Assembly (NCBI RefSeq): GCF_006345805.1
Contig: NW_021829910.1
Span: 1-44,231, forward strand
DNA length: 44,231 nt
Reading direction: 5' to 3'
DNA from: Octopus sinensis
Lineage: Eukaryota
Each line of letters begins with the position of its first letter. Positions within the stretch are counted from its first letter, which is position 1. This document shows positions 5,701 through 11,700 of this stretch, one piece after another. The position numbers and the translations under genes are program-made. Under the pieces are notes generated by a model. The model worked only from the letters and a program-made list of their open reading frames with translations. It was not told the origin of the DNA and ran no database searches.

Positions 5701-8700
5701 TTAGATTCGATAATAAACTATATCGACAGATAAAAGGACATCACTACAGAGACGAGGTTCGCACACATTCCCGCACCCAGAGGTAGATATACATATGTGT
5801 GTATATTTCTGAGAGCATACGTATGTATGTGCGTATAAGTGCGTGTATTTGTGTGGATATGTGTGTTGATACGTAGATAGGCGAAGCGGATACTCGAGGT
5901 TGTGCAAGTCAAGTAAGAAATAAACACGAAACGGCTGCCACATTAAGACATTCTTCGTCTTCTTCTTCTTCTTCTTCTTCTCTTCTTCTTCTTCTTCTTC
6001 TTCTTCTTCTTCTCTTCTTCTTCTTCTTCTTCTTCTTCTTCTCTTCTTCTTCTTCTCCTCCTCGTCCTCCTTCTCCTCCTCTCCTCCTCCACTCCTCATC
6101 TCCTGCTCTCTTCTTTTTCTTCCTTTCATTCTAAAGCCACAGTTTTTGATGTCGTATCACAAATATTTTCCGTCTAATCTTTTTATTCTTTCTTTACTGC
6201 TATAGAGATCTGCAGGATAACAATATTGCAACCATCCAAGAAGGTGTATTCACGGGGCTTAAGAATTTAAAACAATTGTAAGTTCGTTCAGTTTCTTGAT
6301 ACTATATTCCGAAAGTAATATTTGACGCTGATATATACACACATTGCCCAATAATTTTTCAGACTGCACTATACAAGAACAATTCAAATTTGGGGACCGA
6401 ACACGATTTAGGAAGATACAAAGAGGGAGTAAGTGAGCGAGACACAAACAGAGAAAGAGGGAGAAATTGAGAGAGAAATTAAAATAATACGACAAATTTA
6501 ATGTTCCTTTATTACAGTTGCTTTGTTTCAATTCGCGTCACCATAACTCATATTCGAGCCTCAAATTTCAATGATTTCTATATGAATTTGTATTAGAAAT
6601 GGTAACGTTTGTGTGTTTACATGTTTGCATCAAATATGTTTAGCAGAAGTATGTGAGTATGTCCATATCTAAGTGTAATTCTGTGTGAGATGTGACTATA
6701 TTATTCCATTATTTTATTGCAATTCCATTCTTCTTCTTCTTCTCTTCTTCTTCTTCTTCTTCTTCTTCTTCTTCTTCTTCTTCTTCTTCTTCTTCTTCTT
6801 CTTCTTCTTCTTCTTCTTCTTCTTCTTCTTCTTCTTGTATTTTCCTGTAATATTGTTCCTATACATAAAGAAAAATATTCAATATTTTATTGCAATTCCA
6901 TATTAAGTCAAACTAAGCAATATTGTTTTCTGCTTCAGATCTCTAAAGGACAATAAAATTTCGAGGATTGAAAAAGAGATGTTTCAAGGCCTTCAGAACT
7001 TACAGGAATTGTAAGTCCTTTCAATGTTGTCGTTTATACATGAGGAATATAATGTGTCTTTAAATTAAATATTCCCTGATTTCTATTTATTCTCACTCCC
7101 TATTACTTGAAGTTATAATCACTTTTCATATTCGTGTTATATTTATTTGATTGTGTCTGAACATGACAATGTCTGGCAGTTGATAATCGTCTGCATCAAA
7201 ATTTTATTCCTGAAAACGTGTATGTTCACATATGTATGAGTGTGTCTGTAGTGTTATAATACCTATGTTTTAGCTACTGTTTCGTTTCACATTGTTCTCT
7301 TGATTCTTGTGGTAACGTGTGGTTATTTATCCACAGTTCCGCCGAAATAATTTCCTCTTGTTTTATTTCTTCTTCTTCTTCTTCTTCTTCTTCTTTTTTT
7401 CCTCCTTTTTCTTCTTCATTTTTCTTATGCTCTCCTCCCCTTCCTCCTCCCTCCTCCCCTCCTTTCCTCCTCCCCTCCTTCCTCCTCCCCTCCTTCCTCC
7501 TCTTCTTCCTCCTACTCTTCCTCCTACTCTTCCTCCTCCTTCTCCTCCTCCTTCCTCCTCAACCGCTTCTCCTATACTCCACCCCTCCTCCTTTCCTCCT
7601 CCCCCTCCGTTCCTCCTCCCCTCCTCTTCCTCCTCTTCCTCCTTTCCTCCTCCTCCTTCTTCGTCGTCGTTATCTGTCTTCATTTTTCTTCCTTTCATTC
7701 TGAACCCCCTTGTTTGATGTTTTTTCACAATTATTTTTCATATAATCATTTTTATTCTTTCATTACTGCTATAGAATTCTGTGGAACAACAAAATTTCAA
7801 CCATCGAAGAAGATGTATTCACGAGGCTTTCCGATTTAACGTCATTGTAAGTTCGTTCAGTTTCTTGATACTATATTCCGAAAGTAATATTTGATGCTGA
7901 TATATACACTCATTAACCAATAATCTTTCAGACTGCACTAAACAAAATCAATTCAAATTTGGGGACCGAACAGGAGTTTGGAAGATACAAAGAGGGAGTA
8001 AGAGAGCGAAACATAGTGAGAGAAAGAGGGAGAAATTGAGAGAGAATGTGAAATAATTGGACAATTTTAATGTTCCTTTATTGCTGTTGCTTTGTTTCAA
8101 TTCGTGTCACCATAACTCATTTTTGAGCCCCTAATTTCAATGATTTTACTTGAATTTGTATTAAAAATGGTAACATTTGTGAGTTTACATGTTTGCATCA
8201 AATATTTTTAGCAGAAGTATGTGTGTATGTTCATATATAAGTGTAGTTCCGTGTGCAATGTGAATATATTATTCTTTATTATATAATTTGTATCCTTCAT
8301 TTCTTATTTCAATCTTTTTCGTGTTTCGATATTATCATTCAACTTCGACTTTTTCATTCACATCACTTTATTTAAGTGATAAACCAACTGAAGTGGAAGC
8401 GGAAAATAAATATATACGAATAATGTCGTCACATACATTCTCTCTGTAAACCTGAAATCCTTACTGCACATTTAAGCAGGAATATTTGGCCTGATACAAT
8501 TTAACTGCTGATATATTTCTAGTTAGAGGGGCTTTTCTAATATAATTTTCTTCTGTCAATTAAGCGATATGAGATTAATAATCTCTCTCGCCATATTTCC
8601 ACACAGGTGAGTGAGAATATGTGTGAATGTGAGTGTGCGTATCACCTTACGTCGTTCATATTATGAATATAAGCATGTGTATGAGTGCATTCAAATATGT

Positions 8701-11700
8701 TGATTTCTGAGTCCGTATATTCCCTCATTTTTCAGCCATGTTCTCTCCCTCAAACGTTTGTTCCCTGTCCCTGAAATATCTCCTGTTATTTCTTTGACTA
8801 CATTTTCTGTTTCGCCTTCTTGAATACCAAGATTTTCAATGTGTCTTCTTCTCTTCTTCTTCTTTTCTTCTTCTTCTTCTTCTTCTTCTTCTTCTTCTTC
8901 TTCTTCTTCTTCTTCTTCTTCTTTTCTTCTTCTCCTTTTTCTTCTTAGTCTTCTTTCTTTTCCTCTTCTTCTTCTTCTTCTTCTTCTTCTTCTTCTTCTT
9001 CTTCTTCTCTTCTTCTTCTTCTTCTATTTTTTCAGAAACTTTCTCCTGTACATTCTGCTTTGTCAATTTCCTCCTTCTTTTTCTTTCTCTTTTACTTGTT
9101 TCTCCTATTCTCATTCGCCTCCTCCTCCTGCCCATTCTGCCCCGCCTCTCTTCCCTCCTTCTCTCTCCTCCTCGCCTCCCCTCCTTCACCCTCCTTTTAC
9201 TCCTTCTCCCCGCATTATCCTCTTTCGCCTCTTCGCCCTCCTCCTCCTCCTTCATTTTATTCTCCTTTTCCCCCTCCCTTTCTCCTCCCTTCCTCCCTTC
9301 TTCCTCCTCTTATTTCGTCTACTTCTTCTTCTTCTTCTCCTTTTTCTTCTTCTTCTTCTTTTCTTCTTCTTCTTCTTCTTGTTCTAGTTGTTGTTGTTGT
9401 TCTTGTTCTTGTTCTTGTCCTTGTTCTTGTTCTTCTTGTTCTTGTTCTTTTTCTTCTTCTTCTTCTTCTTCTTCTTCTTTTTCTTCTACGTTATATGTCT
9501 TCCTTTTTTCCCTTTCATTCTAAAGCCATATTGTTTGATGTTTTATCACTAATATTTTCCATCTAATCTATTTTACTCTTTCTTTACTTCTGTAGAGATC
9601 TTGACGGCAACGACATTTCGACCATCAAAGATGGTTCCTTCAATGGGCTTTCGAATTTAACGAAATTGTAAGTTCGTTCAGTTTCTTGATAATAATTTCT
9701 GAAAGTAATATATGATGCTGATATATAAACTCACAAATGTATGAACGTTCAGACTGCAATAAGCAAATCAATTCAAATTTGGGGACCGAACAGGAGTTTG
9801 GAAGATACAAACAGGGAGTAAGAGAGCGAGACACAATGAGAGAAAGAGAGAGAAAGAGAGAGAGAAAGTGAAATGATAGGACAAATTTAATGTTCCCTTA
9901 TTGCAGTTGCTTTGTTTCACTTCAGGTCATCCTAAATCAATTTTGATCCTCAAATTCCAATGACTTTTATATGAATTTGTATTAGAAATGGTAACGTTTG
10001 TGAGTTTACATGTTTGCATTAAATATTTTTAGCTGAAGTATGTGAGTATGTTCATAAATAAGTGTAGTTATAAGTGTAAAGTGTGACTATATTATTCCTT
10101 TATTTTATAATTTGTCTCCTCCTTCATTTCTTATTTCAATATTCTCTTTCGTGTTTCGATATTGTCATTCAACTTCTTCTTCTTCTTCTTCTTCTTCTTC
10201 TTCTTCTTCTTCTTCTTCTTCTTCTTCTTCTTCTTCTTCTTCTTCTTTCGTTAACGCTCTTCTCTTTCTTCATTTAATTCTAAAGCCACAGTTTTTGATG
10301 TCGTATCACAAATATTTTCTATATAATCTATTTTACTCTTTCTTTACTGCTATAGAGATCTGCGGAACAACAAAATTTCAACCATCAAAGAAGGGACCTT
10401 CACGAGGCTTTCGAATTTAAACTACTTGTTAGTTCGTTCAGTTTCTTAATACTATTTTCTGAATGTTTCCTTTGTACTGATATATTTTCTCTCAGAAACG
10501 TATAAACTTTCAGAGTGCACTATCTTCTTATTCTTGTTCTTCTTGTTTTACTTGTTCTTCTACATCTCCTCTCCTCTCCTCCTCCTCCTTCTTCTTCTTC
10601 TTCTTCTTCTTCTTCTTCTTCTTCTTCTTATTTCTTTCTCTCCTTTTTCTTCTTAGTCTTCTTCTTTTCTCTTCTTCTTCTTCTTCTTCTCTTCCTTCGT
10701 CTTCTCTTTGTTGTTTCGTCTTCTTTTCCTTCTTCTTGTTCTTGTTCTTCTTTTATAGTCAATTTATAGGTACCCAGTATATATCTTCTACCAAAAGGTG
10801 AGCATTGTTTTGTGTACTTTGAATAGGATTCTGAAAGTTATGCACTGGTCTGAAGATGGTCAATGTTATTGCAATAATTAATAGTTTATTGTTTTGAAAA
10901 CCATTTTTATCATTACACTGCTACTGGAGTATATACTTTTACTATTCCTTGTTTCAGTTATCACAATGCGGCCATGCTGGAGTACTACCTCCAAGCGTTT
11001 CCTCGAACACATCGTCCTTAGTACTGAATTTTTAAAACCTGGCACTTAATCAGTCGGGTACCTTTTGCGGAACCACTATGTTACGGGGGACGTAAACAAA
11101 CCAATATTGGTCATCAAGCGTTGGTGGGGATAAACACAAAGACAAACACACGCATATATATATTATATATATATATATATATATATATATATACACACGA
11201 AGGGAATCCACACAGTTTCCTGCAGCAAATTTACTCACAACGCTTAGTTGACCCAAGGTTATAGTAAATGTTATTTGTCCAAGGTGCCACACAGTTGGAC
11301 TAAAGAATCCATGGATGTGAGAAGTAATTTTCTTGCCACAGAACCATGCCTATATGGAGAATGATATTTCTACCATAGATGAGAATGTTAACTAAAACCC
11401 ATATTGTGCACATAAGAAAGTCTCCTTGTTATTTTGTTATTTTTGTATTTTATTCCCTTCCATCTGTTGCTGTTTTGTTATCAGATTTTCTCTTAGGATA
11501 ATTAAATTAGATTGAAGGAACTTATTCTTCTTCAAACAACACTTCCCACAGAACTATGAAGAGAAACAAACAATTGTAGTGTGTAATATCAGCATTTACC
11601 CTGTTAGTGTTGACTAAAACGCAATTTAGTACTAAACAGGAGTAAACAGATTTATTTATTTTTACTTATTTTAAAGTATGTAATATTTGTCTCTTTTTCA

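Follow-up and report, generated by a model that had tools for sequence, protein, structure and literature searches.

The window analysed here is the whole of an unplaced contig (C6381; NW_021829910.1, 44,231 nucleotides) of the 2.72 Gb genome of Octopus sinensis, and its leucine-rich repeat (LRR) exons are part of one member of a large octopus family of LRR adhesion G protein-coupled receptors (GPCRs), where each repeat is encoded by one exon of 72 nucleotides (nt). We propose, with a probability of roughly 0.6, that this family constitutes a germline repertoire of membrane-bound and predicted secreted LRR proteins that bind varied non-self ligands, supplied by gene conversion and kept by selection. 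Conversion and the duplication of exon cassettes would provide new patches of sequence, and diversifying selection would retain the residues lying on the strand face of the repeats.

LRR exons and their variable positions

The protein record of the window is the O. sinensis 'protein slit-like, partial' (P0001), and the exons were located by tblastn of P0001 and of an orthologue model from O. vulgaris (P0002), together with the inspection of AG/GT splice ends. LRR exons 1 to 5 all measure 72 nt, have AG/GT ends and share an identical phase:

6206..6277, plus strand: LRR exon 1, type A, 72 nt
6278..6672, plus strand: intron flank common to type-A units genome-wide, 83-88% identity between units
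6939..7010, plus strand: LRR exon 2, type B, 72 nt, with its own intron flanks
7775..7846, plus strand: LRR exon 3, type A
7847..8240, plus strand: common type-A intron flank
9596..9667, plus strand: LRR exon 4, type A
9668..10061, plus strand: common type-A intron flank
10356..10427, plus strand: LRR exon 5, type A, with a weaker donor, GTTAGT
11702..11773, plus strand: LRR exon 6, terminal type (tblastn, splice ends)

In a preliminary description of the window, these duplicated exons were said to have diverged faster than their own introns, and almost only by amino-acid change. The counts behind this statement were reproduced exactly: exons 1 and 3 differ at 19 of 72 nt, with 12 replacement, no synonymous and 11 identical codons, the next 200 nt of their introns differ at 17 sites, and exons 3 and 5 are separated by eight replacement codons and one synonymous codon. 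Exons 1 and 3 have diverged beyond their own intron (Fisher P=4e-4 for the 200 nt, 1e-3 for both flanks). The faster divergence of exons holds for exons 1, 3 and 4 and does not extend to exons 2 and 5, since the introns of exon 2 are unrelated and the one that follows exon 5 shows a match in its first part only. The restriction to amino-acid change was not sustained: the per-site ratio of nonsynonymous to synonymous differences (pN/pS) is 1.8 for exons 1 and 3 (not significant, P 0.2-0.5), 0.82 for exons 3 and 5 and 0.63 for exons 1 and 4, and divergence at the silent sites of exons, too, is 2-5 times faster than in held-out intron. None of the three ratios is significant alone, and both whole-exon pN/pS and the pair of exons 1 and 3 taken singly were dropped as tests. 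The signal is local: in each of the six pairs of type-A exons of the window, 6-10 of the 15 strand-face bases differ, against 8-15 of the 54 bases elsewhere.

The 541-nt unit has 190 candidate places in its own genome, and an 18-nt donor motif has 100 exact matches there. From the window and 40 genomic stretches (420,812 bases), 143 exons were collected, namely 112 of type A, 29 of type B and two terminal ones. After 15 of the 112 type-A exons had been dropped for a frameshift, a stop or an absent splice site, 85 type-A and 28 type-B distinct units were kept, corresponding to 77 and 27 distinct exons, respectively. The flank as an independent transposon was ruled out, as 39 of the 40 scored units include the LRR exon. 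At C13298:1010-1434, both intron flanks match and the LRR exon is absent.

The near fixation of the framework L, N, I and F residues and the variation at the x positions, noticed first in the window, recur in this larger set. Codons 1, 3, 4 and 23 are hypervariable: in type A, each of them shows 8-14 residue types and an amino-acid entropy of 2.5-3.3 bits, against 0-0.5 at framework codons, and in type B they are again the four most variable. Tyr and Trp together account for 19.7% of the 412 residues at these codons and for none of the 1030 at convex positions, and the N-cap likewise varies at its own strand positions. Diversity rises from 0.11 in the acceptor flank to 0.46 at exon nt 2-13 and falls to 0.14 in mid-exon, so that the most variable codons adjoin the most uniform DNA.

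Mapped on the predicted structure, as the preliminary description had suggested, the variable positions lie on or just after the beta-strand. The strands of the AlphaFold model (residues 115-117, 139-141 and so on; predicted local distance difference test, 77-96) correspond to codon 23, the split Leu and codon 1. The top fold match of the LRR model is VLRA (Foldseek, E=2e-12), and further neighbours include NGL, the Nogo receptor, Slit and LRRTM2. Each intron falls inside the predicted beta-strand, so that a row of the binding face combines codons 22-23 from one exon with codons 1, 3 and 4 from the next. Since a row spans two exons, the addition, loss or skipping of a frame-neutral exon would create new rows as well as change the length of the solenoid, which frame-neutral exons keep intact.

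Probable gene conversion between units

We hold with considerable confidence that gene conversion is the source of the exon patches. Through their common flanks, units would be able to pair with one another, be duplicated or lost, and swap short tracts. When close pairs were chosen on part of the flank and divergence was measured on the remaining flank, silent exon sites differed by 7.3-8.1% against 1.5-3.9% for held-out intron in type A, and by 5.9-7.2% against 1.7-2.5% in type B; the strand-face bases of close pairs differed by 19-23%, about three times the silent divergence. Distances in the 5' block are uncorrelated with those in the rest of the exon (rho -0.04). Since silent sites, too, show the exons decoupled from their introns, the contrast between exons and introns is partly the work of gene conversion, and to this extent the homogenisation of introns, which the preliminary description had named as a danger to its reading, would apply. 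Homogenised introns and imported exon patches are both conversion filtered by selection, and the two are inseparable here; conversion likely acts together with selection on the exons.

Over 6847 unmasked non-coding positions, the window and a sister gene at C29:2.06 Mb show 17 differences (99.75% identical). Of the 11 differing exon bases, ten fall in two patches of 9 and 14 nt (chance about 1e-7); three C-cap amino-acid differences between the window and the C29 copy were not counted as a patch:

6940..6948, plus strand: exon-2 patch, five differences in 9 nt from the sister, codons 1-3, one silent
10365..10378, plus strand: exon-5 patch, five differences in 14 nt from the sister, codons 3-8, one silent

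All five sister bases of the exon-5 patch occur together in two other family exons, an exact donor search found a one-mismatch donor for it, and the O. vulgaris orthologue model carries the window state at this patch. It could be argued that such patches are artefacts of assembly or of chimeric reads among near-identical repeats, as the frameshifts in 15 of 112 type-A exons and the many unplaced haplotigs would suggest. This is very improbable: the differences concentrate on in-frame strand-face codons and are not random, and, of 45 LRR units taken from a second species, 11 are identical to exons found here, most of the others differing at the same positions.

Probable diversifying selection on the strand face

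Diversifying selection, rather than relaxation, very probably keeps the new strand-face residues. A maximum-likelihood codon model was applied to the 77 type-A and 27 type-B exons, with site classes fixed from the LRR consensus (five strand-face codons, framework, other). In type A, omega (dN/dS) was 4.3 for the strand face, 0.25 for the framework and 0.96 for the other codons, with a likelihood-ratio test against 1 of 104; in type B, the values were 5.8, 0.37 and 1.4, with a test of 32. Thus, in this larger set the selection claimed in the preliminary description is supported at the five strand-face codons, where dN/dS does exceed 1, even though part of the contrast with introns on which the claim had leaned is gene conversion. 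In 23 independent close type-A pairs, 5 of the 23 codon positions account for 47 of the 77 replacement codons.

Because recombination inflates such codon tests, neutral strand-face codons were simulated in 18 runs under free recombination, each codon or each block of four codons having a genealogy of its own. In all 18, omega remained between 0.46 and 1.81, against the observed 4.3 and 5.8, and strand-face divergence between 0.07 and 0.31, against 0.51. These runs bear directly on the possibility that there is no positive selection at all, the strand-face codons being merely unconstrained and the contrast being faked by conversion-homogenised introns. Such a reading would account for silent exon sites outrunning introns 2-5 times, for a whole-exon pN close to pS and for a tree-free count that is not above 1 in type A. 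We consider it hardly probable, given that no neutral run reached the observed values, that strand-face nucleotide divergence is about three times the silent divergence in close pairs, that the identical four codons peak in two exon types with a bias towards Tyr and Trp, and that equally exposed convex codons have an omega near 1 or below.

Several results weigh against the proposed repertoire, or against the strength of its signal. By counting, the whole-exon pN and pS of the family are similar (0.103 and 0.133 in the closest type-A bin). When the silent rate is estimated within the strand region alone, omega becomes 1.85-3.06 in type A and 3.1-7.5 in type B (P 0.03 to 3e-8); the narrowest version of this estimate, confined to the strand face, was dropped because it is too noisy under the null (0.37-10.7). 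The tree-free count, which is biased to silent paths, gives 4.2 nonsynonymous against 6.1 synonymous steps per site on the type-A strand face. Haplotigs inflate the locus counts, and intron diversity is biased low because loci were picked by similarity to the flank. In P0002, four of the five shared LRRs are identical and all strand-face codons are unchanged; therefore, the window gene is not racing between species. Regarding conversion, the exon-2 patch has no full donor among 51 matches, a systematic donor test succeeded for 8 of 18 clusters against 5.7 expected (P=0.09) and for none of 7 in type B, and the sister copy, in which LRR 6 is frameshifted and the C-cap truncated, may be a pseudogene or poorly assembled.

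Receptors and forms without the membrane part

The relatives of the window run on into SEA-like, HormR, GAIN, GPS and 7tm_2 domains, and the domain order of the family is LRRs, three-finger domain, SEA-like, HormR, GAIN and seven-transmembrane (7TM) part. P0017 has both GPS (E=1e-10) and 7tm_2 (E=7e-34), and the orthologue model of the window gene, P0002, has GAIN, GPS and the first transmembrane helix. The 53 matches to the non-LRR part comprise 47 named Octopus proteins, three unnamed ones and three distant fish GPR126. The usual GPS cleavage motif is His-Leu followed by Thr or Ser. The GPS of P0002, P0016 and P0017 is without the His and Thr of this motif and is therefore predicted to be uncleavable in the closest receptor forms (as at C29:1653721-1653879), and more distant members retain both residues. 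Matched by features rather than by tree, the family corresponds to the octopus-specific 'group 3' adhesion GPCRs, a clade described as including members with LRRs and a single member with a Death domain (Ritschard et al. 2019, PMC6408891); P0063 fits the latter.

Most family members appear to be without the membrane part and are predicted, from sequence, to be secreted. N-cap exons at 90% identity or more number 31 among 40 scored, and GPS exons at 92% or more only 3 among 80 matches. Of 1506 candidate places 40 were scored, and at least 26 of these match the 7TM-less junction region, 10 of them on C29; the 26 include haplotigs, and two were inspected directly, the other 24 being identified by match only. 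At two gap-free loci, the second SEA-like exon joins the receptor's last exon 1.2-1.4 kb away, without GAIN, GPS or 7TM. Beyond the leader, the protein models that end in this way show no segment resembling a membrane span. The C29:2.06 Mb sister copy is 7TM-less. A near-identical second copy of the window at C29:1.83-1.87 Mb (121 mismatches at 23526 non-coding positions of the distal part) is interrupted by an N gap that follows its first SEA-like exon; a second gap comes before the GPS-7TM exons, which are found 165 kb further on. At C29:2114299-2115899, the ectodomain is joined straight to the last exon, and the C-terminus resembles that of full receptors.

RefSeq models skip LRR exons in many combinations. 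Predicted isoforms, 13 for one paralogue and seven for another, differ by whole 24-residue units, and two units in the set of 13 resemble hybrids of adjacent units, a warning that some junctions between near-identical exons may have been mis-mapped. We infer exon skipping in vivo, with these models as the evidence on splicing, and separately the secretion of the 7TM-less forms.

Amplified LRR arrays of their own, varied at the strand positions, occur in other subclades (P0063, P0078, P0082, P0066 and P0073, some from O. bimaculoides), which suggests that such expansion took place repeatedly and independently. Two O. vulgaris models, P0008 and P0084, join family exons to ankyrin repeats and may be mis-joined gene models.

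Comparison with known systems

The expansion of the octopus family is known, and its design is known from Ectocarpus ROCO, NLR and fungal NWD genes. The group 3 expansion was published by Ritschard et al. (PMC6408891), who detected selection at no individual site; the accessible portion of that paper mentions neither one-LRR exons nor conversion, and neither a three-finger domain nor 7TM-less members. In the literature outside subscription journals, we found no report of site-level selection, cassette exons or 7TM-less members in the octopus family, nor any of this exon design in a family of adhesion GPCRs.

The ROCO genes of Ectocarpus (Zambounis et al., PMC3341825), like those of the octopus, encode a 24-residue LRR per 72-nt exon and include inactivated exons; there, exons are shuffled between near-identical loci and the selected sites lie on the concave face, with an omega of about 5.9. 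What the octopus family shares with this design are frame-neutral 72-nt one-LRR exons and positive selection at concave positions. Contrary to these intracellular brown-algal GTPases, the octopus exons encode the extracellular domains of a GPCR family in an animal, and secreted forms are predicted for it; none of the 143 octopus matches is an inverted intronic LRR such as Ectocarpus has.

Lamprey and hagfish variable lymphocyte receptors (VLRs) have the same LRRNT-LRRn-LRRCT solenoid of 24-residue repeats with a variable concave face. Their germline gene is incomplete, and cytidine deaminases assemble cassettes into it somatically (PMC13428168). The octopus genes, by contrast, are complete and spliceable in the germline, their cassettes being spliced exons, and a search for an AID/APOBEC-type deaminase, which was exon-wise and weak for a genome of this size, gave no PF08210 (APOBEC_N) match among 8 candidates.

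In human NLRP/NOD genes, too, LRR exons preserve the frame and have their border within the beta-strand (Hoss et al. 2019, PMC6642158), and alternative splicing of these genes alters the binding surface; this modularity is also reported for LRR genes of the typical class, such as Slit. They differ from the octopus family in being few and cytosolic, with no hypervariable repertoire described in the available part of PMC6642158. The het-d/het-e NWD genes of Podospora (PMC1805685) exchange repeats within and between members and have four surface residues per repeat under diversifying selection; these fungal genes, however, encode intron-free WD repeats of intracellular allorecognition proteins.

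Vertebrate ADGRG6/GPR126 shares SEA-like, HormR, GAIN and 7TM with the octopus family and is its best non-octopus match (structure 6v55). ADGRA2/3 have N-terminal LRRs, as in the octopus family. Both differ from it in being single-copy, conserved genes, and to our knowledge neither has a Ly6/uPAR domain.

Other features of the window

The remaining exons of the gene and its Cys-rich units are as follows:

2514..2724, plus strand: likely signal peptide (by eye) and LRR N-cap exon, ATG at 2534, ending in a split Leu codon (tblastn, AG/GT)
20476..20633, plus strand: LRR C-cap exon (tblastn, splice ends)
27230..27321, plus strand: Cys-rich unit 1 (predicted Ly6/uPAR three-finger), first exon (tblastn; fold of a homologue)
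29293..29476, plus strand: Cys-rich unit 1, second exon (tblastn, splice ends)
34455..34546, plus strand: Cys-rich unit 2, first exon (tblastn, splice ends)
36517..36700, plus strand: Cys-rich unit 2, second exon (tblastn, splice ends)
39350..39441, plus strand: Cys-rich unit 3, first exon (tblastn, splice ends)
41412..41595, plus strand: Cys-rich unit 3, second exon (tblastn); the gene continues past the contig end, and P0001 is annotated 'partial'

The Pfam LRRNT match of the N-cap exon (E=0.003) is below the cut-off. Before the C-cap, an upstream acceptor in some O. vulgaris models (window 20426-20475) adds 17 residues. Since the P0001 model is unreliable beyond residue 299, a homologue was folded for the Cys-rich unit. 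Its residues 52-139 match Lynx2 (Z 7.7, root-mean-square deviation 2.7, 79 aligned), and Prod1, Lynx1, CD59 and GPIHBP1 are among the other matches; seven Ly6/uPAR (LU) proteins agree, with middling Z. The unit, which has no match in the ESM Atlas, has the features of a predicted Ly6/uPAR three-finger fold with terminal CC-x-LCN cysteines. The three tandem two-exon units and surrounding repeats (21590-44231) are spaced by 4.9-7.4 kb; the C29 copy has four such units, and most relatives have one.

The introns hold broken fragments resembling long interspersed nuclear elements (LINEs) or reverse transcriptase, recognised by eye in open reading frame translations, on the minus strand at 14097-15053, 16624-18202 and 18770-19339 and on the plus strand at 5060-5780, 29859-30433, 37298-37873 and 42193-42768. 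Tandem arrays of 43 bp (7.6 copies) and 23 bp (5 copies) at 18154-18570 border a LINE fragment. A 140-nt inverted repeat at 208-506 (97% complementary, spacer of 19 nt) has a related inverted sequence at 15973-16175.

Ligands and possible roles

The family would yield receptors together with secreted proteins that bind varied ligands, and its products may serve non-self recognition at the surfaces of skin, gills and suckers. An immune role in this sense seems to us about an even chance; non-self recognition is favoured over neural self-recognition because of the predicted secretion, the turnover and the Tyr/Trp-rich variable faces. In published data, group 3 is expressed outside the brain, in nerve cord, suckers, skin and gills (PMC6408891).

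Less likely, the diversified face would be a neural or epithelial self-recognition code beside the expanded protocadherins, wiring the arm nerve cord and the suckers. In O. bimaculoides, group 3 is expressed most in the axial nerve cord, where it peaks, suckers and skin, which its authors read as neural adhesion (PMC6408891), an observation to be added to those that weigh against non-self recognition. A neural code would also suit the fold neighbours NGL, Nogo receptor, Slit and LRRTM2, the conservation of the window gene's strand-face residues between two species, and the many combinations in which RefSeq models skip LRR exons. It is harder to reconcile with members that mostly appear to be without a membrane anchor, and with C. 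minor, in which gills dominate group 3 expression (PMC6408891). The broken exons (15 of 112) also tell against it. Rapid birth and death, broken exons and patchwise exchange are a better fit to host-parasite genes.

A role of the family in sensing external macromolecules, such as surface proteins of prey, mate, egg or sperm, at suckers, skin and gonads is improbable. It would agree with the published expression in suckers, skin and ovary (PMC6408891) and with an 'adhesion GPCR G6' protein in the skin mucus of O. vulgaris (PMC11431876), which is linked to the family by annotation name only, but secreted forms cannot signal by themselves.

Within the non-self reading, an antibody-like system, with few membrane receptors and dozens of secreted LRR proteins, germline micro-conversion, combinatorial skipping of 72-nt cassettes that would rebuild the strand rows at the splice junctions in an individual animal, and possibly somatic exchange, is a tentative and rather unlikely extension.

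A review names FREPs for molluscs and, in its accessible part, no diversified recognition receptor for cephalopods (PMC13428168). The family described here is a candidate for such a receptor: its variable positions are defined, it pairs membrane forms with forms predicted to be secreted, and isoforms that skip cassettes are annotated. A VLR-like binding face would here have arisen independently on a GPCR. If its role were neural instead, it would represent a second diversified surface code beside the octopus protocadherins.

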